Virus record (IMG/VR): IMGVR_UViG_2563366976_000005
Source: a virus
Lineage: Duplodnaviria; Heunggongvirae; Uroviricota; Caudoviricetes
Reading direction: 5' to 3' (one strand)
DNA length: 13,080 nt
Shown here: positions 1,321 to 12,771 of the stretch, piece by piece
How the letters are laid out: the number at the start of each line of letters is the position of its first letter
How positions within the stretch are numbered: position 1 is the stretch's first letter
The notes under the pieces: generated by a model
Told to the model about the DNA's origin: nothing
What the model saw: the letters and a program-made list of their open reading frames with translations, nothing else
Database searches by the model: none
Program-made: the position numbers and the translations under genes

Positions 1321-1420
1321 GTTGAAGCCTGCTTTTTATACTAAGTTGGCATTATAAAAAAGCATTGCTTATCAATTTGTTGCAACGAACAGGTCACTAT
1401 CAGTCAAAATAAAATCATTA
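1321..1420. other. attL: attL (B-O-P'): core 1331..1344, IHF H' site 1370..1382, Int arm-type sites P'1 to P'3 at 1391..1420
   Basis: The core reads gctttttatactaa. It is preceded by the host B arm (gttgaagcct) and followed by gttggcattataaaaaagcattgcttatcaatttgttgcaacgaacaggtcactatcagtcaaaataaaatcatta, recalled as the lambda P' arm. tatcaatttgttg fits the IHF consensus WATCAANNNNTTR. aggtcactat, cagtcaaaat and aaaatcatta are arm-type Int sites. Confidence 0.9.
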
Positions 1421-2488
1421 TTTGATTTCAATTTTGTCCCACTCCCTGCCTCTGTCATCACGATACTGTGATGCCATGGTGTCCGACTTATGCCCGAGAA
1501 GATGTTGAGCAAACTTATCGCTTATCTGCTTCTCATAGAGTCTTGCAGACAAACTGCGCAACTCGTGAAAGGTAGGCGGATCCCCTTCGAAGGAAAGACC
1601 TGATGCTTTTCGTGCGCGCATAAAATACCTTGATACTGTGCCGGATGAAAGCGGTTCGCGACGAGTAGATGCAATTATGGTTTCTCCGCCAAGAATCTCT
1701 TTGCATTTATCAAGTGTTTCCTTCATTGATATTCCGAGAGCATCAACATGCAATGCTGTTGGGATGGCAATTTTTACGCCTGTTTTGCTTTGCTCGACAT
1801 AAAGATATCCATCTACGATATCAGACCACTTCATTTCGCATAAATCACCAACTCGTTGCCCGGTAACAACAGCCAGTTCCATTGCAAGTCTGAGCCAACA
1901 TGGTGATGATTCTGCTGCTTGATAAATTTTCAGGTATTCGTCAGCCGTAAGTCTTGATCTCCTTACCTCTGATTTTGCTGCGCGAGTGGCAGCGACAGGG
2001 TTTGTTGTTATATGGCCTTCAGCTATTGCCTCTCGGAATGCATCGCTCAGTGTTGATCTGATTAACTTGGCTGACGCCGCCTTGCCCTCGTCTATGTATC
2101 CATTGAGCATTGCCGCAATTTCTTTTGTGGTGATGTCTTCAAGTGGAGCATCAGGCAGACCCCTCCTTATTGCTTTAATTTTGCTCATGTAATTTATGAG
2201 TGTCTTCTGCTTGATTCCTCTGCTGGCCAGGATTTTTTCGTAGCGATCAAGCCATGAATGTAACGTAACGGAATTATCACTGTTGATTCTCGCTGTCAGA
2301 GGCTTGTGTTTGTGTCCTGAAAATAACTCAATGTTGGCCTGTATAGCTTCAGTGATTGCGATTCGCCTGTCTCGGCCTAATCCAAACTCTTTACCCGTCC
2401 TTGGGTCCCTGTAGCAGTAATATCCATTGTTTCTTATATAAAGGTTAGGGGGTAAATCCCGGCGCTCATGACTTCGCCTTCTTCCCAT
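1418..2488 (-). CDS. int: Lambda-type tyrosine integrase Int
   Basis: The 356-aa ORF is essentially lambda Int by recall (MGRRRSHERRDLPPNLYIRNNGYYCY...). The catalytic set is intact: R in GQRVGDL, H..R in HELRSL, H in LLGHKS, Y in ASQY. It overlaps xis as in lambda. Confidence 0.97.
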   Translation of the reverse strand: MGRRRSHERRDLPPNLYIRNNGYYCYRDPRTGKEFGLGRDRRIAITEAIQANIELFSGHKHKPLTARINSDNSVTLHSWLDRYEKILASRGIKQKTLINYMSKIKAIRRGLPDAPLEDITTKEIAAMLNGYIDEGKAASAKLIRSTLSDAFREAIAEGHITTNPVAATRAAKSEVRRSRLTADEYLKIYQAAESSPCWLRLAMELAVVTGQRVGDLCEMKWSDIVDGYLYVEQSKTGVKIAIPTALHVDALGISMKETLDKCKEILGGETIIASTRREPLSSGTVSRYFMRARKASGLSFEGDPPTFHELRSLSARLYEKQISDKFAQHLLGHKSDTMASQYRDDRGREWDKIEIK

Positions 2489-2684
2489 TTCTGATCCTCT
2501 TCAAAAGGCTACCTGTTACTGGTCGATTTAAGTCAACCTTTACCGCTGATTCGTGGAACAGATATTCTCTTCCATCCTTAACCGGAGGAGGGAATATCCT
2601 GCATTCGCGCACCCATCGACGAACTGTTTCAAGGCTTCTTGGGCGTCGCTGGCGAGCGTTCCACTCCTGAAGTGTCAAGTACAT
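2466..2684 (-). CDS. xis: Excisionase Xis
   Basis: The 72-aa ORF MYLTLQEWNARQRRPRSLETVRRWVRECRIFPPPVKDGREYLFHESAVKVDLNRP... matches lambda Xis by recall. Its 23-nt overlap with the int start is as in lambda. Confidence 0.95.
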   Translation of the reverse strand: MYLTLQEWNARQRRPRSLETVRRWVRECRIFPPPVKDGREYLFHESAVKVDLNRPVTGSLLKRIRNGKKAKS

Positions 2685-2710
2685 CGCAAAGTCTCCGCAA
2701 TTACACGCAA

Positions 2711-2732
2711 GAAAAAACCGCCATCAGGCGGC
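2711..2732 (-). terminator. Putative intrinsic terminator (leftward) overlapping the orf55 stop
   Basis: The minus strand reads gccgcc-tgat-ggcgg followed by tttttt. The stem is 5 bp and GC-only. Confidence 0.5.
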
Positions 2733-2891
2733 TTGGTGTTCTTTCAGTTCTTCAATTCGAATATTGGTTACGTCTGCATGTGCTATCTGCGCCCACAGCA
2801 TCCAGTGGTTATAGCAGTCGCTGATGTTCTCGGCTTCGATAACTCTGTTGAATGGTTCTCCATTCCATTCACCTGTAACTCGGAAGTGCAT
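2724..2891 (-). CDS. Small lambda orf55-like protein (55 aa), below the ORF-track cutoff
   Basis: Hand translation gives MHFRVTGEWNGEPFNRVIEAENISDCYNHWMLWAQIAHADVTNIRIEELKEHQAA, with ATG at 2891..2889 and TGA at 2726..2724. It resembles the lambda ORF between xis and ea8.5 by recall. Confidence 0.6.
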   Translation of the reverse strand: MHFRVTGEWNGEPFNRVIEAENISDCYNHWMLWAQIAHADVTNIRIEELKEHQAA

Positions 2892-2902
2892 TTATCATCG
2901 CC

Positions 2903-2929
2903 ATAAAACAAAACTCGCCGTAGCGAGTT
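2903..2929 (-). terminator. Putative intrinsic terminator (leftward), second of a tandem pair
   Basis: The minus strand reads aactcgc-tacg-gcgagtt followed by ttgttttat. The stem is 7 bp (2912..2918 with 2923..2929). Confidence 0.6.
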
Positions 2930-2931
2930 CA

Positions 2932-2960
2932 GATAAAAGAAAACCCGCACTCGGCGGGTT
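2932..2960 (-). terminator. Putative intrinsic terminator (leftward), closes the accessory cassette
   Basis: The minus strand reads aacccgc-cgagt-gcgggtt followed by ttcttttat. The stem is 7 bp (2942..2948 with 2954..2960). Confidence 0.7.
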
Positions 2961-2980
2961 CGCATTCGTTCAAATTGCGT

Positions 2981-3262
2981 TTACTTCTTGGCGTTCTGTT
3001 CATCCATATCGATATACCATGGGTTGCTTCCCTTGGGCATGTTTAACGACTGCTCGCGATAGTATCTGATGCGCTCCATGAAATACTCGCGTGAGTGCTC
3101 AGGTTGCTCTCATGATACCTGCTCAGTGATAACAGGTATGTTAAGGCGCTCTCTGTACTCCATGCCTGATGCTGCAAGGTCAACGTTTACCTTGTTCTGT
3201 TTTTCTTTCGATTTCTCGGCGATGTTATGCCTGACATTGTCAACCCGCCTCCTTCTGAACAT
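2981..3262 (-). pseudogene. 93-codon reading frame broken by one in-frame TGA (3110..3112); alternatively two short ORFs of 50 and 32 aa
   Basis: Hand translation gives MFRRRRVDNVRHNIAEKSKEKQNKVNVDLAASGMEYRERLNIPVITEQVS-stop-EQPEHSREYFMERIRYYREQSLNMPKGSNPWYIDMDEQNAKK-stop. The same frame runs on both sides of the TGA. No clear SD precedes the ATG at 3262. Confidence 0.3.
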
Positions 3263-3482
3263 AACGGTTATAAATCAGTCCCTGAGGGCCATAAGGAAGC
3301 GGGATGTGCAACTCCTCTGGTTCAGAAACTATCCATTCCCCGGCCATCTCCGCTGGAGAGGTAATGATAAGTTGTTTGCTAATAAAAGGACCACTCCTCT
3401 CAACAACAAGCTTACCATCTTCATTAATAAAAGCTTGGATGTCAGGTGTGCTTCCACACTTGGTGATGCAGCGTTTGAACAT
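3240..3482 (-). CDS. Hypothetical protein (80 aa from MFKRC; the frame is open to 3524)
   Basis: This minus-strand ORF runs in the same direction as the operon. A G-rich SD (ggggggacacaaaATG) precedes the ATG at 3482. The putative promoter at 3513..3521 would exclude the 3524 start. I recognise no family. Confidence 0.4.
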   Translation of the reverse strand: MFKRCITKCGSTPDIQAFINEDGKLVVERSGPFISKQLIITSPAEMAGEWIVSEPEELHIPLPYGPQGLIYNRYVQKEAG

Positions 3483-3512
3483 TTTGTGTCCCCCCATTTT
3501 ATGGACGGGGTA

Positions 3513-3521
3513 ATTATAACA
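3513..3521 (-). promoter_or_regulatory. Putative extended -10 promoter element (TGtTATAAT) for the accessory cassette
   Basis: The minus strand reads gTGtTATAAT in an AT-rich 85-nt spacer (3525..3608). No good -35 is present, which is acceptable for extended -10 promoters. Confidence 0.35.
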
Positions 3522-3608
3522 CATTGAAATATAGTAATATTTGACGTAGATTTCTTTTGATCTATAAGCGATTTTTTAATGCTTTTAAGTTATAAATACT
3601 TGTTTTCA

Positions 3609-4184
3609 TCACCCATCTTGCTGCGGTGCTACTATTGAAAAGTACTCACACCCTTTAGCCCAAATAGTTTTGATAGTTGTCCAACTGACTGGAACCTTGA
3701 TTTCGATTCTTCCGCTGCCGTCACAAGTTTCGCAATCATCATCACCAAAGCATTCCGGGCAGCTTATAAACGTAGTTTCTGAAAATTCACCGGATAGCAC
3801 ACCCTTAGCGCCGTTCTCAGCGGTTAGTTTCTTCGGCACTATAACCCAACCATCCGGAGTTACCGGAGAATTGCCATTTATATCGAAGTTTGGCTCTGCG
3901 TCCTGAACCAGGAGGATGTAACCATTCTTGGCAGTATCAAGTTCTAACGCCTCGGTGACGGTACCGAAATAGCGATTACCTAAATCCGCATCACAAGTGC
4001 TTACATCAATGGAAACCTCCATGCCTTCGATTAATTCTGGCAAGTTGTAAGTTTGGCTTACAGGTTCTGCTCCCAGTGATGCCAGTGCAATTCGTGCCAG
4101 TTCCATTTGTTCGCCACGAGTAAGCCCGTTTTCAAGCGGATTTTTAATGAACAATTCAATACGTTCTTTGGTAATAGTGGTCAT
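3609..4184 (-). CDS. Hypothetical protein with a C-terminal DnaJ-type CxxC..CxxCxGxG zinc-ribbon motif
   Basis: 191-aa ORF with SD aaggactaacaaATG. The motif is CPECFGDDDCETCDGSGRI. The N-terminal part (LTRGEQMELARIALASLGAEPV) resembles N-termini of the variable Ead/Ea22-region proteins of lambdoid phages. Confidence 0.6.
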   Translation of the reverse strand: MTTITKERIELFIKNPLENGLTRGEQMELARIALASLGAEPVSQTYNLPELIEGMEVSIDVSTCDADLGNRYFGTVTEALELDTAKNGYILLVQDAEPNFDINGNSPVTPDGWVIVPKKLTAENGAKGVLSGEFSETTFISCPECFGDDDCETCDGSGRIEIKVPVSWTTIKTIWAKGCEYFSIVAPQQDG

Positions 4185-4194
4185 TTGTTAGTCC

Positions 4195-4950
4195 TTAAAC
4201 TGCTAGTTGCAATTGCATTTCAAAGCGGTCGCGTTGTTCACAATACGCAAGAGAACCAGGGCTATTGTGTGCCTCAATCCGTTCTACCATTAATGCTGCG
4301 CGTGTCTCTTTACTTGCAGGTGCATAAGCCCCAGACCAGGCTTTATCAATACCGATGTTTCGAGCGACGTTCGTACTATCTGCGCTGGCTAAGGGTAATT
4401 TTGTGAATATCAGCGGATTTAACATGCGCAATCCATGTAGTTTCGTAACCGGCTGACCATGCCCATCAACAATGTGACGAATCAGGTCTTTCATTCTGGC
4501 TACCGCAAGAGTTGGGCGCTTTACGTCATAGTCGCCACAACTACCGATAGCCACTCGCGGAAACTCATTGCACAAATGAATAAATCGCTCGTCACTTTCA
4601 TTCATGTGCCACACTGGAACGCCAGCTAGTTTTCCGTGAGGCCACTCATTCAGAAGCGCATCATTTTCCTCCTCTCCGCCATCAATAACATCCGGGATAA
4701 TGGCAAAATCGAATCCTGGGTGATTCTTCCAGCGAGCAACAAACTCGTAGTAATCGCTCCAGTCGATTTTGTTTTTGCCAGCTGCTTTCCAGGCGGTGAA
4801 TGCACCGTTGTCCAGCGCGAACGACTGACAGTATTCAGCCGCGAGATTGATCTGGCCTGAATGCGCAAAACTGATAAACGCATGTCGCCCTTTCCATGCT
4901 CTCATTGCGCACGTATCAGGAGTAATAGGCCCACCGTGGTAGTGAATCAT
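4195..4950 (-). CDS. TGT-superfamily protein, DpdA-like (putative guanine/7-deazaguanine transglycosylase)
   Basis: 251 aa from MIHYHGGP. The SD is aaaggagagtgagATG, and this start lies 1 nt after the upstream gene's stop, so I prefer it to the 4992 start. Motifs are colinear with E. coli Tgt: FALDNGAF/TDSGGFQ, IIPDVI/MIFDEC, VAIGSCG/YAVGGLA, LHGLRM/LMGVGK, ADSTNVARN/FDCVMPTRNARN. The assignment is not confirmed by a search. Confidence 0.55.
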   Translation of the reverse strand: MIHYHGGPITPDTCAMRAWKGRHAFISFAHSGQINLAAEYCQSFALDNGAFTAWKAAGKNKIDWSDYYEFVARWKNHPGFDFAIIPDVIDGGEEENDALLNEWPHGKLAGVPVWHMNESDERFIHLCNEFPRVAIGSCGDYDVKRPTLAVARMKDLIRHIVDGHGQPVTKLHGLRMLNPLIFTKLPLASADSTNVARNIGIDKAWSGAYAPASKETRAALMVERIEAHNSPGSLAYCEQRDRFEMQLQLAV

Positions 4951-4951
4951 C

Positions 4952-5359
4952 TCACTCTCCTTTGATGCGAATGCCAGTAGCGCGGATTGCATCGATGACT
5001 TCAGAAACTTTGTATGCCATTACCGTTTGGTAATCATCGTGAAAATCTGTTCGATGAAGCATGCTGCTACGTTCCGGGAGCAGTATTTCCCGCGCTTCCA
5101 GTTCTGCAATGCGCTTTTTTGCTGCTTCCAGTTCATCCAGTAATTCCAGCACGGTAGCCGGATTAGCCTTGGCAACAAAATCCCGGACTGGCTTACAATC
5201 AATCTCCGCAATGGGTTGATACGATGTGTAGCCATGCTGTCTTGTATAACTACCGTGACGAATAACGAAAAAATCACCATTTATTTTTTTAGCCTGCCAC
5301 TTATCTTCACCGGCTTTCTCTGCCGCTTCACGCAGTGCCTGAGAGTTAATTTCGCTCAC
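4952..5359 (-). CDS. Ead/Ea22-like family protein (lambda Ea22 N-terminus, divergent body)
   Basis: 135 aa with a GTG start in a GTGA overlap with the upstream stop. The first residues, MSEINSQALREAAE, and the last, GIRIKGE, match lambda Ea22 by recall. The coiled-coil segment LELLDELEAAKKRIAELE is typical of the family. Confidence 0.7.
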   Translation of the reverse strand: MSEINSQALREAAEKAGEDKWQAKKINGDFFVIRHGSYTRQHGYTSYQPIAEIDCKPVRDFVAKANPATVLELLDELEAAKKRIAELEAREILLPERSSMLHRTDFHDDYQTVMAYKVSEVIDAIRATGIRIKGE

Positions 5360-5577
5360 GTCGAACCTCTCTGTTTACTGATAAGCTCCAGATCTTGCTG
5401 GCAACTGGCACAAGTCCGACAACCCTGAACGGCCAGTCGTCTTCGTTCATCTATCGGATCGCCACACTCACAACAATGAGTGGCAGATATAGCCTGGTGG
5501 TTCAGGCGGCGCATTTTTATTGCTGTGTTGCGCTGTAATTCTTCAATTTCTGATGCTGAATCAATTATGTCTGCCAT
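5356..5577 (-). CDS. DksA/TraR-family C4 zinc-finger protein (lambda orf73-like)
   Basis: 73 aa with CCECGDPIDERRRLAVQGCRTCASCQ, which is CxxC-x17-CxxC. The position matches lambda orf73. Confidence 0.85.
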   Translation of the reverse strand: MADIIDSASEIEELQRNTAIKMRRLNHQAISATHCCECGDPIDERRRLAVQGCRTCASCQQDLELISKQRGST

Positions 5578-5629
5578 CTTTCATTAATCCCTGAATTGTT
5601 GGTTAATACGCTTGAGGGTGAATGCGAAT

Positions 5630-5653
5630 AATAAAAAAGGAGCCTGTAGCTCC
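5630..5653 (-). terminator. Putative intrinsic terminator (leftward)
   Basis: The minus strand reads ggagc-tacag-gctcc followed by ttttttatt. Confidence 0.55.
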
Positions 5654-5675
5654 CTGATGATTTTGCTTTTCATGT

Positions 5676-5891
5676 TCACCGTTCCTTAAAGACGCCGTTC
5701 AACATGCCGATCGCCAGGCTTAAATGAGTCGGTGTGAATCCCATCAGCGTTACCGTTTCGCGGTGCTTCTTTAGTACGCTACGGCAAATGTAATCGACGT
5801 TTTTATCCGGAAACTGCTGTCTGGCTTTTTTGATTTCAGAATTAGCCTGACGGGCAATGCTGCGAAGGGCGTTTTCTTGCTGAGGTGTCAT
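5676..5891 (-). CDS. Lambda orf61-region hypothetical protein (71 aa from MTPQQ)
   Basis: I chose the start at the ATGA overlap with the preceding 27-codon ORF. The longer ORF-track start at 5957 has no SD and would overlap that ORF. Confidence 0.6.
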   Translation of the reverse strand: MTPQQENALRSIARQANSEIKKARQQFPDKNVDYICRSVLKKHRETVTLMGFTPTHLSLAIGMLNGVFKER

Positions 5892-5971
5892 TGAACAAGC
5901 CCCATGTCGGCAAGCATAAGCACACAGAATATGAAGCCCGCTGCCAGAAAAATGCATTCAGTGGTTGTCAT
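5888..5971 (-). CDS. 27-aa hydrophobic micro-protein, below the ORF-track cutoff
   Basis: Hand translation gives MTTTECIFLAAGFIFCVLMLADMGLVQ. ATGA overlaps occur at both ends: with the orf63 stop at 5968..5971 and with the next gene's start at 5888..5891. Confidence 0.45.
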   Translation of the reverse strand: MTTTECIFLAAGFIFCVLMLADMGLVQ

Positions 5972-6159
5972 ACCTGGTCTCTCTCATCTGCTTCTGCTTT
6001 CGCCACCATCATTTCCAGCTTTTGTGAAAGGGATGCGGCTAACGTATGAAATTCTTCGTCTGTTTCTACTGATATTGGCACAAACCTGACTCCAATTTGA
6101 GCGAGGCTATGTGCCATCTCGATACTCGTTCTTAACTCAACGGGAGATGCTTTGTGCAT
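5968..6159 (-). CDS. Lambda orf63-like protein
   Basis: 63-aa [26 protein letters not shown]... matches lambda orf63 by recall. Confidence 0.75.
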   Translation of the reverse strand: MHKASPVELRTSIEMAHSLAQIGVRFVPISVETDEEFHTLAASLSQKLEMMVAKAEADERDQV

Positions 6160-6314
6160 ACAGCTCCCCGTTTATTATTTATCTCCTCAGCCAGCCGCTG
6201 TGCTTTCAGGGGATTTCTGATAACAGAAAGGCCGGGAAATACCCAGCCTCGCTTTGTAATGGAGTAGACGAAAGTGATCGCGCCCACCCGGATATTATCG
6301 TGAGGATGCGTCAT
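6132..6314 (-). CDS. Lambda orf60a-like protein
   Basis: [61 protein letters not shown] chose the start at the ATGA overlap with the exo stop (6311..6314). Confidence 0.75.
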
Positions 6315-6991
6315 CGCCATTGCTCCCCAAATACAAAACCAATTTCAGCCAGTGCCTCGTCCATTTTTTCGATGAACTCCGGCACCATCTCGTCAAAACT
6401 CGCCATGTACTTTTCATCCCGCTCAACCACGACATAATGCAGGCCTTCACGCTTCATACGCGGGTCATAGTTGGCAAAGTACCAGGCATCTTTTCGCGTC
6501 ACCCACATGCTGTACTGCACCTGGGCCATGTAAGCCGACTTTATGGCCTCGAAACCACCGAGCCGGAACTTCATGAAATCCCGGGAGGTAAACGGGCATT
6601 TCAGCTCAAGGCCATTGCCGTCACTGCATAAACCATCGGGAGAGCAGGCGGTACGCATACTTTCGTCGCGATAGATGATCGGGGATTCAGTAACATTCAC
6701 GCCGGAAGTGAATTCAAACAGAGTTCTGGCGTCGTTCTCGTACTGTTTTCCCCATGCCAGCGCCTTAGCATTAACTTCCGGAGCCACACCGGTGCAAACC
6801 TCAGCCAGCAGGGTGTGGAAGTAGGACATTTTCATGTCAGGCCACTTTTTTCCGGAGCGGGGTTTTGCTATCACATTGTGAACTTCTGAAGCGGTGATGA
6901 CGCCGAGCCGTAATTTGTGCCACGCATCATCCCCCTGTTCGACAGCTCTCACGTCGATTCCGGTACGCTGCAGGATAATGTCCGGTGTCAT
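6311..6991 (-). CDS. exo: Lambda exonuclease (Red alpha)
   Basis: The 226-aa [68 protein letters not shown]... is lambda Exo by recall. Confidence 0.97.
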
Positions 6992-7773
6992 GCAGCCACC
7001 TTCTGCTCAGTGGCTTTCTGTTTCAGGAATCCAAGAGCTTTCACTGCTTCGGCCTGTGTCAGTTCTGACGATGCGCGAATGTCGCGGCGAAATATCTGGG
7101 AACAGAGCGGCAATAAGTCGTCATCCCATGTTTTATCCAGGGCAATCAGCAGAGTGTTAATCTCCTGCATGGTTTCATCGTTAACCGGAGTGATGTCGCG
7201 TTCCGGCTGACGTTCTGCAGTGTATGCGGTATTTTCGACAATGCGCTCGGCTTCATCCTTGTCATAGATACCCGCAAATCCGAAGGCCAGACGGGCACAC
7301 TGAATCATGGCTTTATGCCGTAACATCCGTTTGGGATGCGACTGCCACGGCCCCGTAATTTCTCTGCCTTCGCGGGTTTTGAATGGTTCGCGGCGGCATT
7401 CATCCATCCACTCGGTAACGCAGATCGGATGATTACGGTCCTTGCGGTAAATCCGGCATGTACAGGATTCATTGTCCTGCTCAAAGTCCATGCCATCAAA
7501 CTGCTGGTTTTCATTGATGATGCGGGACCAGCCATCAACGCCCACCACCGGAACGATGCCATTCTGCTTATCAGGAAAGGTGTAAATTTCTTTCGTCCAC
7601 GGATTAAGGCCGTACTGGTTGGCAACGATCAGTAATGCGATGAACTGCGCATCGCTGGCATCACCTTTAAATGCCGTCTGGCGAAGAGTGGTGATCAGTT
7701 CCTGTGGGTCGACAGAATCCATGCCGACACGTTCAGCCAGCTTCCCAGCCAGCGTTGCGAGTGCTGTACTCAT
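6988..7773 (-). CDS. bet: Lambda Bet single-strand annealing protein (Red beta)
   Basis: The 261-aa [67 protein letters not shown]... is lambda Bet by recall. A 4-nt overlap links it to exo. Confidence 0.97.
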
Positions 7774-7778
7774 CCGTT

Positions 7779-8075
7779 TTATACCTCTGAATCAATATCA
7801 ACCTGGTGGTGAGCAATGGTTTCAACCATGTACCGGATGTGTTCTGCCATGCGCTCCTGAAACTCAACATCGTCATCAAACGCACGGGTAATGGCTTTTT
7901 TGCTGGCCCCGTGGCGTTGCAAATGATCGATGCATAGCGATTCAAACAGGTGCTGGGGCAGGCCTTTTTCCATGTCGTCTGCCAGTTCTGCCTCTTTCTC
8001 TTCACGGGCGATCTGCTGGTAGTGACGCGCCCAGCTCTGAGCCTCAAGACGATCCTGAATGTAATAAGCGTTCAT
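7779..8075 (-). CDS. gam: Gam RecBCD inhibitor (98-aa GamS form)
   Basis: [56 protein letters not shown]... is lambda Gam by recall. Confidence 0.95.
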
Positions 8076-8150
8076 GGCTGAACTCCTGAAAATGGCTGTG
8101 AAAATATCGCCCGCGAAATGCCAGGCTGATTAGGAAAACAGGAAAGGGGA

Positions 8151-8357
8151 TTAGCGATTCAGGCCGTTACCGCGTCCGTCGAGAAAAACTTCCACGAGCA
8201 AATCACGGGTATAAGTGCGCTCGATGCCGCGATGCAGATAAAGCCGTCCGCGTAAATTAGCTGATGCAGTCCAGGTACCATCTTTGTGTTTGACCAGCAT
8301 TCCTGGCATGACCGCACCTCGATTAACGGTCTGCGTTCCGTAATGTTGATGAACCAT
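8151..8357 (-). CDS. KilR-like small protein (putative FtsZ-directed host-killing function), in place of lambda kil
   Basis: 68 aa from MVHQHYGTQ with a strong SD (gcAGGAGtttttATG). By recall it aligns along its full length with Rac KilR: MIAHHFGTD.., ..YIASANN..KLYI.., ..IKVFLGRDAGG... The ORF-track frame is open upstream to a TTG at 8561, but without an SD. Confidence 0.55.
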
Positions 8358-8578
8358 AAAAACTCCTGCCCGTAAGCTGGGCTGCTGAACATATAGAGAC
8401 TTCTGCGCGTATTCAGGCGGTGGATGGCCGCCGGTTGTCATAACTAAGTCGCCTCGTTGAAGCGACTGAGGTATGAAGTGTTGAGTTGATTTCAGCTGGT
8501 CACACCGACGTTCACGCGTCCGCTTCACCCCTCGCACTCCCCGAAGCCTGCTGAAATTCAAACTGCGGATCTAAGCGG

Positions 8579-8630
8579 TCATCGCAACGGTGAAACAGGT
8601 GGTTACCGTATCGTTGTGTCGTTGCGATGA
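8579..8630 (-). other. Long inverted repeat at the 5' end of the predicted pL transcript
   Basis: tcatcgcaacg (8579..8589) and cgttgcgatga (8620..8630) are perfect 11-nt complements around a 30-nt loop. The loop contains acggt/accgt and a second cgttg copy that allows alternative pairing. No U-tract follows. Confidence 0.5.
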
Positions 8631-8634
8631 ATTT

Positions 8635-8710
8635 ATTTAAAACTATAGTTGTTTTATCGTCAACAACAAAAGTTGTTTTGTCGGTTGTTTTAAATATAAC
8701 TGGTTGTATT
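8635..8710 (-). promoter_or_regulatory. pL / oL region
   Basis: The minus strand has TTGACG (8663..8658), a 17-nt spacer, then TTAAAT (8640..8635). The block GTTGTTGAC..AAAACAAC.ATAGTTTTAA is shared with pR. GTTGT/ACAAC half-sites start at 8648, 8663, 8672, 8684 and 8703. Confidence 0.6.
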
Positions 8711-8802
8711 TAGGATGGATTTATTTTGTGACTTGCATCGCATAGCGATAACTGAAGTGAGGTGTGGTGGTTTTTTGGACGGTATGAGTTATGAGGGGGA
8801 GG

Positions 8803-8830
8803 AAAAGAAAACCCGGCGCGGTTGCCGGGT
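8803..8830 (-). terminator. Intrinsic terminator after the lipoprotein gene (functional analogue of t-imm)
   Basis: The minus strand reads acccggc-aaccgc-gccgggt followed by tttcttttcc. The stem is 7 bp (8811..8817 with 8824..8830). Confidence 0.75.
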
Positions 8831-8837
8831 ATGATTA

Positions 8838-9218
8838 TCAGTCAGCCCAACCTGATTTCGAGTTTATTTGGGTTTCTGACATTGTGTATTTCTTAATCGT
8901 GTCATCGTTAAAAAGAATAGTAAGTTCTTTTTTCGTACCGTTCGTTCCATTATGGAATAATCCATAGAATGGAATAAAAGTGGTGCCATTAACTTTTACT
9001 TTTGCAAAGGCGTACTTCCAGATCTCGTTTCCACTGTCAGTATATGAAACAGCATCAGGAGAACCAAAGTAAGATTTAACCTCATTCTTGGTTGTTTTAC
9101 CTTCCTGAAGTTTAGACTGGACACTAATTTCAGTTTCATTTTTGAGTTGCTGGTTGCCTGAAGAAGCACACCCAGCCAATACAGATGCCATCATGGCAGC
9201 GATTAGGATTTTTCTCAT
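8838..9218 (-). CDS. Prophage-encoded lipoprotein, BamE/SmpA-OmlA (BLIP-fold)-like
   Basis: 126 aa. The signal peptide carries lipobox LAGC, and +2 is Ala, which predicts outer-membrane sorting. KLQEGKTTKNEVKSYFGSPD fits the motif common to BamE-like small lipoproteins. The gene is visibly AT-rich compared with its neighbours. It occupies the rexAB position between cI and pL. Confidence 0.7.
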   Translation of the reverse strand: MRKILIAAMMASVLAGCASSGNQQLKNETEISVQSKLQEGKTTKNEVKSYFGSPDAVSYTDSGNEIWKYAFAKVKVNGTTFIPFYGLFHNGTNGTKKELTILFNDDTIKKYTMSETQINSKSGWAD

Positions 9219-9447: not shown

Positions 9448-10137
9448 TTAACCATGCTTCCTGTACGTCTGCGGCATGCTTCCAATGACCTTACCGAATA
9501 TGAACACCCGGTTCATCTCGTCTTTCTCGATCGGGTCCCACGGCGAGTAGCTCTTGTTATCAGAGATAACCAGCAGCTTATCCTTCATCATTTGAAGACG
9601 TTTTACATGGGCAGTGTCGTCGTACAGAAACGCATAGATGCCATCACCGTCGAAAGATTTAACAGTGATATCAACGAACAGCAGGTCACCTGGTTCGATC
9701 GTCCCTGACATGCTGTCACCTCGCACGTTAATGATGCGGATATTTTCCGCCTTCCTGCCATCGAACATGTGACGAGCATCGTCAAACGAGTACTCAACCG
9801 AGCGTAGAACTTCTACAAACTCACGGTTGATTACACCTGGCCCGGCACTGACTTCTATATCAAGAACGTCAATTTTGAAGTATTTGGAATGGCTGACAGT
9901 TGATTGTATTGGTTGCACTGTACTGTCTGACATATTTCCAACGCCAGAAGATAACCATTCTGCGCGCACACCCAAAGCGTTCGCGATCTCCACGATTTTA
10001 GTTGTTTGGTTAGCTTTCCCTGTTTCGATTTTCTGAATAGCAGCCTGGCTAACCCCGACCAAATCCCCAAGCGCCTTTTGTGTAAGGCCTCGCGCTAATC
10101 TGGCTTCTTTAAGTCTTTCTGAGAGTGTTGTTTTCAT
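9448..10137 (-). CDS. cI: CI-type prophage repressor (N-terminal XRE HTH, C-terminal S24 LexA-like autopeptidase)
   Basis: 229 aa. The HTH is LTQKALGDLVGVSQAAIQKIETG. The candidate Ala-Gly cleavage site is in VSAGPG. The Ser is in GDSMSGT and the Lys in HVKRL. The gene is divergent from cro. No SD precedes its ATG. Confidence 0.9.
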   Translation of the reverse strand: MKTTLSERLKEARLARGLTQKALGDLVGVSQAAIQKIETGKANQTTKIVEIANALGVRAEWLSSGVGNMSDSTVQPIQSTVSHSKYFKIDVLDIEVSAGPGVINREFVEVLRSVEYSFDDARHMFDGRKAENIRIINVRGDSMSGTIEPGDLLFVDITVKSFDGDGIYAFLYDDTAHVKRLQMMKDKLLVISDNKSYSPWDPIEKDEMNRVFIFGKVIGSMPQTYRKHG

Positions 10138-10241
10138 AGATCAAATGTACAACCAAGGTTTTATTTCATCAAACGAAAATGGTTGTTGACTAAAAACAAC
10201 CATAGTTTTAATCTTGATTCGGATTAACCACGGAGGTTGTT
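10138..10241. promoter_or_regulatory. oR / pR / pRM divergent control region
   Basis: A perfect 9-bp inverted repeat, atggttgtt-N7-aacaaccat (10179..10203), overlaps pR -35 TTGACT (10186..10191). The pR -10 is taatct (10209..10214). Candidate pRM on the minus strand is TTGATG (10172..10167), 17 nt, then TACATT (10149..10144), which places the transcription start at or next to the cI ATG. Extra half-sites are ACAACC at 10149 and GGTTGT at 10235. Confidence 0.6.
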
Positions 10242-10472
10242 ATGAACCCAGCAATCAAAACAGCGATCAATATCGTTGGTTCACAAAAGAAACTAGGCGA
10301 TGCCTGCGAAGTTTCACAGCAGGCCGTCTATAAGTGGCTTCACAACAAAGCAAAGGTATCCCCTGAACATGTCGGCAGCATTGTTACGGCTACTGGTGGA
10401 GTTGTGAAGGCATACCAGATTCGCCCGGATCTTCCGAAGTTGTTTCCACACACCGAAAAGAACGCAGCTTAA
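10242..10472 (+). CDS. cro: Cro-like repressor, YdaS family HTH
   Basis: 76 aa with SD cggaggttgttATG. The pattern IVGSQKKLGDACEVSQQAVYKWL...TGGVV....IRPDL parallels Rac YdaS by recall. Confidence 0.8.
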   Translation: MNPAIKTAINIVGSQKKLGDACEVSQQAVYKWLHNKAKVSPEHVGSIVTATGGVVKAYQIRPDLPKLFPHTEKNAA

Positions 10473-10484
10473 ATTTCCATTTCA

Positions 10485-10497
10485 CGCTCTTTAACAA
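10485..10497 (+). promoter_or_regulatory. boxA element (nutR position)
   Basis: cgctctttaacaa matches the rrn boxA TGCTCTTTAACAA at 12 of 13 positions. It lies between cro and the CII analogue, where lambdoid nutR sites lie. Confidence 0.65.
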
Positions 10498-10541
10498 TAA
10501 GCAATCAACTTAACAGTCAATTCAAACTAAAGGAGTCAATT

Positions 10542-11081
10542 ATGCAACCACTTACATACCAACAGACTAGCGGATTTATTCCGACTGCGGTGATAAATCG
10601 TTCTCAAACAAAACAAGCTCCAGGCCACGAAAAAATCCGTGATGCCGTCCGCGCCTGGTCGGCTGTAGATAATCAGGATGTCGTTGCCGCACTCATTGTG
10701 AATGAGTATCGGGAGCAGGGCGACGGCACCATCGATTTCCCTGATGATGTCAGCCGTGCACGCCAGAAGCTGTTCCGCTTCCTCGATAACAAATTCGATT
10801 CTGAAAAATACCGAAATAACGTGCGTGAACTGACCCCGGCAATTCTGGCGGTACTACCGCTGGAATATCGCGGTTACCTGGTTGAGCAGGATAGCTTCAT
10901 GACTCGGTTGGCTGAAATGGAAAAGGAACTCAGTGAGGCAAAACAGGCTGTCATTCTCAACGCACCACGCCACCAGAAACTGAAGGAAATGAGTGAAGGT
11001 ATTGTGTCGATGTTTCGTGTGGACCCGGATCTGGCTGGTCCATTAATGGCGATGGTGACCACCATGCTGGGGGCAATATGA
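10542..11081 (+). CDS. YdaT-like protein (functional analogue of CII)
   Basis: 179 aa with SD aaaggagtcaattATG. VAALIVNEYREQG.. and LTPAILAVLPLEYRGYL parallel Rac YdaT (ANAITEEYLRQGG, LIPAILAILPRELRHRL) by recall. It sits in the cII position. Confidence 0.7.
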   Translation: MQPLTYQQTSGFIPTAVINRSQTKQAPGHEKIRDAVRAWSAVDNQDVVAALIVNEYREQGDGTIDFPDDVSRARQKLFRFLDNKFDSEKYRNNVRELTPAILAVLPLEYRGYLVEQDSFMTRLAEMEKELSEAKQAVILNAPRHQKLKEMSEGIVSMFRVDPDLAGPLMAMVTTMLGAI

Positions 11082-11167
11082 CAGGTTCAGAAATGGCGAA
11101 AGTCGGTCTGCGGGAACAGAACCGACTTTCAGGTGCAAATCGTAACACACTCATTGCGGGAGGAATT

Positions 11168-12097
11168 ATGGCAAACACTGCTGAGATATTCAATTTTCCA
11201 GTGCCGGATGCGGCACAAAAGGAGCCGCGCGTGGCAGATCTCGATGATGGTTATACGCGCATTGCAAATGAGTTGCTGGAAGCTGTGATGCTGGCCGGAT
11301 TAACACAGCACCAGCTTCTGGTCTTCCTGGCTGTCATGCGCAAAACATATGGCTTTAATAAAAAACTGGATTGGGTGAGCAACGAGCAACTTTCCGAGTT
11401 GACCGGGATATTGCCGCACAAGTGTTCTGCTGCAAAAAGCGTTCTGGTAAAGCGTGGGATTCTTATTCAGAGCGGGCGGAATATCGGCATTAATAATGTG
11501 GTCAGTGAATGGTCAACATTACCCGAATCAGGTAAGAAAAATAAAGTTTACCTGAAAGAGGTAAATTTACCTGAATCAGGTAAGAAAAGTTTACCCAAAT
11601 CAGGTAAAGGCGTTTACCCGAATCAGGTAAACACAAAAGACAAACTAACAAAAGACAATATAAAACCTTTTTCGTCCGAGAATTCTGGCGAATCCTCTGA
11701 CCAACCAGAAAACGATCTTCCTGTGGAGAAACCAGATGCTGCAATTCAGAGCGGCAGCAGGTGGGGGACAGCAGAAGACCTGACCGCCGCAGAGTGGATG
11801 TTTGACATGGTGAAGACCATCGCGCCATCAGCCAGAAAACCGAATTTTGCAGGGTGGGCTAACGATATCCGCCTGATGCGTGAACGTGACGGACGTAACC
11901 ACCGCGACATGTGCGTGCTGTTCCGCTGGGCATGCCAGGACAACTTCTGGTCCGGTAACGTGCTAAGTCCGGCCAAACTCCGCGACAAGTGGACCCAACT
12001 CGAAATCAACCGTAACAAGCAACAGGCTGGCGTGACAGCCGGAAAATCAAAACTCGACCTGACAAACACTGACTGGATTTATGGGGTGGATTTATGA
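11168..12097 (+). CDS. O: Replication initiator O (chimeric: novel N-terminal iteron-binding half, lambda-type C-terminal half)
   Basis: I chose the start MANTAEIFNF (SD gggaggaattATG) because it aligns with lambda O MTNTAKILNF. An in-frame alternative ATG at 11078 forms an ATGA overlap with the upstream stop. From about SSENSGESSDQPENDL to the end the protein equals lambda O by recall. Confidence 0.85.
   Translation: MANTAEIFNFPVPDAAQKEPRVADLDDGYTRIANELLEAVMLAGLTQHQLLVFLAVMRKTYGFNKKLDWVSNEQLSELTGILPHKCSAAKSVLVKRGILIQSGRNIGINNVVSEWSTLPESGKKNKVYLKEVNLPESGKKSLPKSGKGVYPNQVNTKDKLTKDNIKPFSSENSGESSDQPENDLPVEKPDAAIQSGSRWGTAEDLTAAEWMFDMVKTIAPSARKPNFAGWANDIRLMRERDGRNHRDMCVLFRWACQDNFWSGNVLSPAKLRDKWTQLEINRNKQQAGVTAGKSKLDLTNTDWIYGVDL
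11519..11630. repeat. ori: Replication origin iterons (five copies) inside O
   Basis: TTACCyGAAwsAGGTAA occurs at 11519..11535, 11548..11564, 11567..11583, 11591..11607 and 11614..11630. Each copy is internally palindromic (TTACC-N7-GGTAA). An A-rich tract follows at 11631..11670. The layout matches lambda ori, but the iteron sequence is different. Confidence 0.85.
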
Positions 12098-12771
12098 AAA
12101 ACATCGCCGCACAGATGGTTAACTTTGACCGTGAGCAGATGCGCCGGATCGCCAACAACATGCCGGAACAGTACGACGAAAAGCCGCAGGTACAGCAGGT
12201 AGCGCGGATCATCAACGGTGTGTTCAGCCAGTTACTGGCAACTTTCCCGGCGAGCCTGGCTAACCGGGACCAGAACGAACTGAACGAAATCCGCCGCCAG
12301 TGGGTTCTGGCTTTCCGGGAAAACGGGATCACCACAATGGAACAGGTTAACGCAGGAATGCGCGTAGCCCGTCGGCAGAATCGACCATTCCTGCCATCAC
12401 CCGGGCAGTTTGTCGCCTGGTGCCGGGAAGAAGCATCCGTTACCGCCGGACTGCCAAACGCCAGCGAGCTGGTTGATATGGTTTACGAGTATTGCCGGAA
12501 GCGTGGCCTGTATCCGGACGCAGAGTCTTATCCATGGAAATCAAACGCGCACTACTGGTTGGTTACCAACCTGTACCAGAACATGCGGGCCAATGCGCTG
12601 ACTGACGCGGAATTACGGCGTAAAGCTGCCGATGAGCTGACCTGTATGACCGCGCGAATTAACCGTGGTGAGGCGATACCTGAACCAGTAAAACAACTTC
12701 CTGTCATGGGCGGTAGGCCTCTAAATCGTGCACAGGCTCTGGCGAAGATCGCAGAAATCAAAGCGAAGTGA
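12094..12771 (+). CDS. P: Replication protein P (DnaB loader), C-terminally truncated by IS insertion
   Basis: 225 aa, lambda P by recall up to ...AKIAEIKAK. Lambda P continues FGLKGASV. Here the TGA stop (12769..12771) is the first three bases of the IS inverted repeat. Confidence 0.9.
   Translation: MKNIAAQMVNFDREQMRRIANNMPEQYDEKPQVQQVARIINGVFSQLLATFPASLANRDQNELNEIRRQWVLAFRENGITTMEQVNAGMRVARRQNRPFLPSPGQFVAWCREEASVTAGLPNASELVDMVYEYCRKRGLYPDAESYPWKSNAHYWLVTNLYQNMRANALTDAELRRKAADELTCMTARINRGEAIPEPVKQLPVMGGRPLNRAQALAKIAEIKAK

Follow-up and report, generated by a model that had tools for sequence, protein, structure and literature searches.

A ribosomal-type boxA without boxB at the nutR position of an N-less lambdoid phage of Escherichia coli

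What is the role, present or past, of a boxA motif that stands just downstream of a phage cro gene, with no boxB hairpin after it and no N gene to serve it? The question is raised by a 13,080 nt stretch of DNA (IMG/VR record IMGVR_UViG_2563366976_000005, Caudoviricetes; hereafter the window), in which a sequence closely resembling the boxA of the ribosomal operons lies between cro and the next gene of the rightward operon. The original prediction, made from the sequence of this locus, left two answers open: the element might be left over from an N-dependent system, or it might work by itself, through host factors, as an antitermination site on the rightward operon.

The window is a portion of a lambda-like temperate phage. 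Positions 1333-8154, from int to gam, are approximately 98% identical to lambda, and the stretch 9400-11200 matches Escherichia phage PhiR26_1 with 99.9% identity. The immunity region is common to five E. coli phages besides PhiR26_1, and 1,524 of 5,426 complete E. coli genomes contain the immunity module of which it is part. The local map, built from open reading frames (ORFs), family searches and shared operator repeats, is given in Table 1. The left edge of the module is formed by OL and pL, likeness to phages of other immunity beginning at 8627. On the right, pR as read from the sequence would consist of TTGACT at 10187-10192 and a -10 element TAATCT at about 10210-10215, and the genes ydaT, O, P and ren are densely arranged with overlapping stop and start codons, the 3' end of ydaT overlapping the start of O (11078).

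Table 1. Features of the early region around the boxA element (positions in the window)
Feature	Position	Strand	Remarks
gam	7779-8075	-	
kil, KilR-type	from ATG 8357	-	
pL leader	8358-8627	-	approximately 270 nt, non-coding, 5' of kil; ORF there broken in 23/53 haplotypes
OL operators and pL	8628-8720	-	TTGACG at 8661-8656; operator repeats common to OR
Intrinsic terminator of the lipoprotein gene	8830-8811	-	strong
Lipoprotein gene	8838-9218	-	126 aa; lipobox LAGC; weak BamE-like match; PHROG 3135
cI repressor	9448-10137	-	helix-turn-helix (HTH) and S24 peptidase; from family search
OR operators and pR	10140-10225	+	operator repeats common to OL
cro, YdaS-type HTH	10242-10472	+	76 aa; Pfam YdaS_toxin / P22_Cro; PHROG 35, transcriptional repressor
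boxA, CGCTCTTTAACAA	10485-10497	+	orphan NusB/S10-binding motif; positional homologue of nutR boxA
ydaT leader	10498-10541	+	unstructured, G-poor, C>G; Shine-Dalgarno sequence (SD) AAGGAG at 10529-10534
ydaT, CII analogue	10542-11081	+	179 aa; Pfam YdaT_toxin, 4e-30; PHROG 163, CII-like activator, 1e-66
O	11078-12097	+	
P	12094-12771	+	

Some features of the map lie away from the cro-ydaT spacer. The likeness to lambda stops at an abrupt mosaic boundary at 8154, just past gam and near the 3' end of kil, and the kil-cIII-ea10-ral-sieB-N block of lambda is swapped for the KilR-type kil and its leader. The lipoprotein gene and its terminator (8811-9218, minus strand), between cI and OL/pL, occupy the slot that holds rexAB in lambda; sister phages carry different cargo in the same slot, for instance an ASCH-domain protein. 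Further to the left, an ORF of 265 aa (4195-4992, minus strand) matches PHROG 887, 'queuine tRNA-ribosyltransferase' (5e-104), and may be a DpdA-like 7-deazaguanine DNA-modification gene.

The boxA element and the spacer behind it

The 13-mer at 10485-10497, cgctctttaacaa, equals the rrn boxA TGCTCTTTAACAA at 12 of 13 positions, and its 12-nt core GCUCUUUAACAA equals the E. coli rrn boxA at all 12, on the sense strand of the pR transcript. The residues G2, C5, U6 and U8, which are the key positions of boxA (PMC3177189), are all present. No other site in the window comes within one mismatch of the motif, every other match having three, and the exact core GCTCTTTA occurs once in the window. The 12-nt core GCTCTTTAACAA is also present as a single copy in the 48,207-bp genome of PhiR26_1, for which base composition predicts approximately 0.005 copies per genome, and approximately 4e-6 in the 69-nt spacer. 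A chance match can therefore be rejected: given this expectation, and given the homologous position of boxA in the relatives described below, the presence of the motif is non-random.

The placement of the element is that of a nut site. The cro stop codon (10470-10472) is followed after 12 nt (10473-10484) by boxA, approximately 263 nt from the inferred start of pR; lambda and P22 are arranged alike, with gaps of 7 and 6 nt, respectively. The original prediction had called the motif a ribosomal-type boxA and a better match than lambda's own, and on both counts it was right, since the nutR boxA of lambda (CGCTCTTACACAT) agrees with the rrn sequence at only 9 of 13 positions. Its framing needs one correction, in that boxA sequences of this quality are usual in lambdoid nut sites: P22 has CGCTCTTTA in both nutL and nutR, the boxA of phage 21 is reported to be identical to that of E. 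coli (PMC3177189), and several relatives of the present module are similarly endowed.

The 44 nt that follow boxA had been described as nearly free of G and unable to form a boxB hairpin, which composition and folding confirm. This stretch contains five G residues, three of them in the SD of ydaT, which starts at 10529, 32 nt after the end of boxA at 10497. The fold of 10465-10560 has a free energy of -4.1 kcal/mol (z = +0.41) and an unpaired centroid, and that of the 45 nt past boxA reaches -1.7 kcal/mol, as against -6.4 to -19.8 kcal/mol in relatives bearing nut sites; in neither fold was a boxB stem-loop or a tR1-type hairpin found near boxA. A boxB hidden on the 5' or the 3' side of boxA was considered and rejected, as the folds show none and that of 10380-10500 sits almost wholly within translated cro. 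The RNA has a C/G ratio of 2.0-2.7 between 10422 and 10560 and lacks structure; in composition it resembles a rut site, a property that by itself is no proof of Rho loading.

Short repeats are also present in the spacer, with A(A/G)TCAA at 10502, 10516 and 10533, TTAACAG at 10510-10516 and TTAACAA at 10491-10497, the last of these within boxA. A minority class of haplotypes (13 of approximately 200 copies) has a 12-nt insertion after 10509 that brings an extra TTAACAG. By analogy with CP-933P, it is possible that these repeats are elements of a putative YdaT operator or of a PRE-type promoter.

Searches for N, nutL and put RNA

The leftward operon was searched for the partners that a functional nutR would have. 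No second boxA was found at up to two mismatches in the window, in the PhiR26_1 genome or in approximately 200 related loci, and the minus strand of the pL leader holds none at this threshold. Nor was an N-like match obtained for any of the leftward ORFs in Pfam, PHROGs or NCBIfam; the 62 CDS annotated in the PhiR26_1 record include Q and not N, and approximately 200 copies of the module, together with the complete PhiR26_1 genome, yielded neither an N gene nor a nutL. The original prediction had reported both a pL leader without boxA and a missing N gene, in agreement with these results.

Two ORFs were considered as candidates for N and rejected. The 126-aa ORF beside cI encodes a lipoprotein, with the lipobox LAGC, a terminator of its own and a rex-type position. 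The second candidate lies within the pL leader, where an Arg-rich peptide, ...GVKRTRERRCDQLKS, is encoded in frame 5' of kil (8528-8358, minus strand); its KRTRERR stretch has the look of an Arg-rich motif. Frameshifts or stop codons interrupt this ORF in 23 of 53 haplotypes, it matches no family, and its substitutions, distributed 20/13/13 by codon position and comprising 35 non-synonymous against 11 synonymous changes, show no third-position bias.

An RNA of the put type, which might substitute for N, was sought with an nhmmer profile made from HK022 putL, HK022 putR and HK639 putL, the put RNAs of these two phages having a clear common consensus. The profile recovers only its own training sequences, without a match in the window, in PhiR26_1 or 4A7, or in any of the 14 relatives described below; as the spacer is moreover unstructured, this candidate was also set aside. 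Searches of Rfam at both gathering and permissive thresholds gave no meaningful match. The match TTTCACGCTCTTT in HK022 is irrelevant, because it lies inside the repressor ORF on the strand opposite to pR transcription.

The pL leader has features of its own. It is 97% identical in phages of other immunity, and this identity sets in precisely at about +1 of pL. The leader begins with a stem of 10-11 bp (8630-8620 paired with 8589-8579), which is followed by a second stem-loop, and the predicted fold of the whole (-63 kcal/mol, z = -2.3) is unlike a put RNA; polymorphisms in the leader show no clear covariation. The leader is a candidate replacement for N and nutL in these phages. Within it, a hairpin (CAGTCGCTTCAACGAGGCGACT, 8435-8457, minus strand) lies just 5' of, and overlaps, a possible SD and start codon of kil. 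HK639 has a counterpart, 94% identical and annotated as a terminator, and a block of 60 nt around the hairpin is kept in HK225 and phi80 too.

Relatives with complete nut sites and sister phages without boxA

A search with the Cro protein, restricted to one genome per species, returned 14 loci from other Enterobacterales, with 63-86% amino acid identity. In eight of these 14, a boxA with 0-2 mismatches is found 7-25 nt past the cro stop codon and is followed by a short spacer and a hairpin; the genera concerned are Izhakiella, Erwinia, Xenorhabdus, Buttiauxella, Photorhabdus, Arsenophonus and, twice, Rosenbergiella. Six of the eight also have a leftward site consisting of boxA and a hairpin, and half of these six leftward hairpins are of the same type as the one at nutR: GGGUG/CACCC in L208, CYCUGAAUAYGUGUUAGRG in L210, where the changes between the two hairpins are compensated, and UAUGCCGCGAGGUGUA in L212. 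An ORF with an Arg-rich N-terminus follows the leftward site in all six loci, five of these ORFs matching PHROG 271, 'anti-termination protein N-like'. The window's 13-mer recurs without change as the nutL boxA of four such loci, is found at the same side in L207 (Serratia), and is the nutR boxA in Arsenophonus.

Aligning the window with the eight relatives (alignment A1) leaves GCTCTTT as the sole invariant block after cro. When lambda and P22 are added (alignment A2), the window aligns at boxA and at the AT-rich leader adjoining cII, and is gapped where the relatives, lambda and P22 hold boxB and the tR1-type hairpin; this alignment, which underlies the deletion scenario set out below, is itself short and AT-rich. 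The original prediction had suggested a comparison of related nutR regions and had named a boxB together with an N gene as the signature of a relic. This is the signature displayed by the related cro modules, which carry boxA and boxB, a nutL and an N-like gene, and with which the window aligns minus its boxB/tR1 segment.

Two of the loci depart from this arrangement. In L207 (Serratia sp. Ag1) there is no boxA after cro, and a perfect CGCTCTTTAACAA at about 2170 (minus strand), in the leftward leader, is accompanied by no obvious boxB or N-like ORF; this may be a second, independent orphan boxA, on the pL side. In L213 (Ca. Arsenophonus triatominarum) the unit of boxA and a CUCCCUGAAAUUGGGAG hairpin occurs twice on the rightward strand, at 4235 and 5839, 1.6 kb apart, which implies that a nutR-like site has been duplicated.

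Sister phages that share the ydaT side give a different picture. Phages 4A7, Perceval and PhiR68_2 have a YdaT 97-99% identical to that of the window and the same O, P and Ren, together with a different cI/cro immunity region, and their cro-ydaT spacer is 30 nt long and has no boxA. Among the 80 best IMG/VR loci for this YdaT, 65 are of the boxA-less 4A7 type and 15 of the window type. Of 80 loci in the HK639-type YdaT clade, 79 lack a boxA upstream. The sole exception, L275 (1410-1503), has a lambda-Cro-like gene and then, in this order, a boxA, a 19-nt spacer, the hairpin GGCUGAGUAAUCAGCC (GGCUGA-GUAA-UCAGCC) and a YdaT-type gene. Hence a full nutR-like site can adjoin ydaT, and the two modules recombine independently. 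With the other loci of the clade boxA-less and this one complete, a boxA alone does not constitute a recurring solution.

In the boxA-less phages (L222-L301, L002, L203-L205), many unrelated cro genes end in a small, conserved hairpin of the form GCCGCY-TRA-nn-GGCGGC, whose loop contains the stop codon; members of the HK639-type clade have CCTAACCACGAAAGGGAAAGCAATG and then ydaT behind it. It looks like a conserved module-junction, or linker, sequence, and it could also be an RNA element.

Variation of the element within E. coli was assessed in 190 copies, representing 57 haplotypes. Segregating sites number 3 in the 13 nt of boxA, 8 in the remaining 56 nt of the spacer and 29 in the 231 nt of cro. 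No excess conservation of boxA is evident from these figures, the test having little power because the main haplotype class is nearly clonal and boxA variants are rare. The motif is intact in 98% of the sampled copies; the three variants observed are G2T, C3T and A9G, each of them rare. The substitution G2U in the boxA of lambda is reported to cause loss of function (PMC3177189).

Origin and possible roles of the orphan boxA

The explanation that accounts best for these observations, and which we regard as probably correct, is that the boxA is a vestigial nutR half-site, which may still bind NusB/S10 and is dispensable to the phage. The immunity module would descend from an N-dependent ancestor in which cro was followed by boxA, a boxB hairpin, a tR1-type hairpin and a lambda-type cII, with a matching nutL and an N gene downstream of pL. 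In the N-less E. coli lineage the boxB/tR1 segment would have been deleted from the cro-to-cII spacer, the next gene now being a YdaT-type CII analogue, and boxA, adjoining cro, would have stayed behind. Binding of NusB/S10 has probably been retained, because the RNA is still a consensus site for this complex. The rightward early operon, in turn, is presumably independent of boxA, because the sister phages manage without it. We infer from the comparison of loci both this history of deletion and the absence of a required function.

Some observations sit less easily with a functionless relic. The boxA agrees with the family's nut boxA at 13 of 13 positions, while its flanks cannot be aligned with those of the relatives; this implies either that boxB was lost recently or that the motif is under continuing constraint. 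In addition, the module is very successful, as its frequency among E. coli genomes attests. A search of the literature for orphan boxA elements in N-less lambdoids returned nothing relevant.

The principal alternative is that the boxA acts by itself, recruiting host NusB/S10/SuhB to the pR transcript, and thereby either protects transcription from Rho or throttles ydaT in the manner of suhB. Elements of this kind are active without N in rRNA operons, CRISPR leaders (PMC7665894) and suhB (PMC5725501). As stand-alone boxA works without N in those settings, and as the present one lies shortly before an SD in a stretch where C exceeds G, an effect is possible; a stand-alone role of one kind or the other is nevertheless a minority possibility. 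It is the functional option of the original prediction, and it came out of the analysis divided: the motif itself, intact and a high-affinity site for NusB/S10, speaks for it, and the comparative evidence, from the sister phages, the HK639 clade and the polymorphism, does not.

The first form of this alternative follows the rrn operons and CRISPR leaders: NusB/S10, with NusA, NusG and SuhB, would modify the RNA polymerase that starts at pR, so that it resists Rho without N. The identity of the core to the rrn boxA, its sense orientation and its classical nutR distance all fit this proposal, as does its intactness in nearly all sampled copies, and the phage has neither an N nor a put-type RNA that could do the work instead. 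Protection of CRISPR arrays from Rho by a stand-alone boxA has been demonstrated (PMC7665894). In the sister genome, PhiR26_1, terminator-like sites and an opposite-strand gene lie between ren and Q; terminator-like sites downstream in the PhiR26_1 locus include those at 11374 and 11828 (L001 coordinates). Antitermination of the rrn type is, on the other hand, poor against intrinsic terminators. Furthermore, Rho should already be blocked by translation, as expected from the overlapping stop and start codons of the closely coupled ydaT, O, P and ren, and the pL operon, with its untranslated leader of 270 nt, lacks a boxA. The same operon exists without boxA in sister phages, at least one of which forms plaques (phage R68.2 has been used in plaque assays; bioRxiv 10.1101/2025.11.03.685801). 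The layout is not repeated in the HK639-type clade, and boxA is not extra-conserved. This form is consequently improbable.

In the second form, the Nus complex on boxA would hinder ribosome loading at the ydaT SD, so that less of the CII analogue is made and Rho loads on the spacer; if true, this would tie the lysis-lysogeny decision to the availability of Nus factors. The boxA of suhB represses translation and promotes Rho termination, and still does so after relocation to as much as 100 nt from the SD (PMC5725501), a range that comprises the 32 nt found here. The C-rich, unstructured RNA of the spacer would agree with such a mechanism, and lambda has, according to its annotation, rutA and rutB flanking nutR at the equivalent place. 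The argument is nevertheless one of analogy throughout, and the analogy is imperfect in that the suhB boxA is located in a 5' UTR directly before its gene, while that of the window follows a translated gene. Since boxA is again missing from the sister phages, without recurrence and without extra conservation, we consider this form decidedly improbable.

A role at the level of DNA would make the boxA likeness a matter of descent or coincidence, its bases forming part of a putative YdaT operator or PRE-type leftward promoter. In CP-933P, YdaT protects approximately 95 bp in the ydaS-ydaT interval, where it controls a PRE-like promoter (PMC9986795), and the TTAACAA/TTAACAG and A(A/G)TCAA repeats of the spacer, with the further TTAACAG of the insertion variant, might be its counterpart. 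However, the GCTCTT half of the motif falls outside the repeats, and yet the full 13-mer is shared with the nut boxA in distant relatives whose CII is of another type; moreover, the 4A7-type spacer serves a nearly identical YdaT without any boxA sequence. Such a role is accordingly very improbable. That the site functions as a nutR, served by an unrecognised N-like protein or through an unconventional boxB, is scarcely credible, since the Arg-rich peptide encoded 5' of kil, which might suggest it, comes from the broken ORF with mostly non-synonymous changes and no N-family match, and there is neither a hairpin near boxA nor a second nut site.

On the preferred reading, that of a vestigial half-site, the locus illustrates how a classical regulatory site breaks down once its partner protein is lost: the half that binds host factors survives beside cro, and the phage-specific boxB, the terminator that the site served and the N gene are gone. 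This argues for caution in annotation, as finding a perfect boxA where nutR should be does not imply an N system. A very common E. coli prophage lineage, along with its sister lineages, consists of N-less lambdoids without a recognisable put RNA. If the orphan boxA should act after all, stand-alone control by Nus factors would extend from rRNA, CRISPR arrays and suhB to the developmental switch of a phage, and the Nus status of the host would feed into the lysis-lysogeny decision without a phage antiterminator, in about a quarter of sequenced E. coli.

Among known systems, the put phages HK022 and HK639 share with the window phage the condition of being lambdoids with early operons independent of N, and HK639 also shares a YdaS-type cro and a YdaT-type CII; the put-type RNA by which they achieve antitermination (approximately 70 nt, two stems) was found neither in the spacer nor elsewhere in the window phage. 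The nutR sites of lambda, P22 and phage 21 resemble the element in place, just past cro, and in the boxA motif CGCUCUU(U)A. They differ from it in having a boxB, a tR1-type hairpin, an N protein and a partner nutL, in the absence of which the window boxA cannot act as an N-utilisation site. The boxA of rrn operons and CRISPR leaders has the identical 12-nt core and needs no phage protein. By contrast with the present element, those sites stand in front of long untranslated RNAs and show conservation among relatives, whereas the window boxA is followed by tightly coupled ORFs, and sister phages that share the operon lack it; nor was a boxC-like TGTGTGG found in the window. The boxA in the 5' UTR of suhB is likewise a short distance before an SD, in pyrimidine-rich and G-poor RNA (PMC5725501), the difference being that the gene next to the window boxA encodes a phage CII analogue instead of a Nus factor and that the element follows a translated gene. 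As a remnant, the boxA is therefore best read as a known class of motif in a degenerate context, and any stand-alone role as a known mechanism in a new one.
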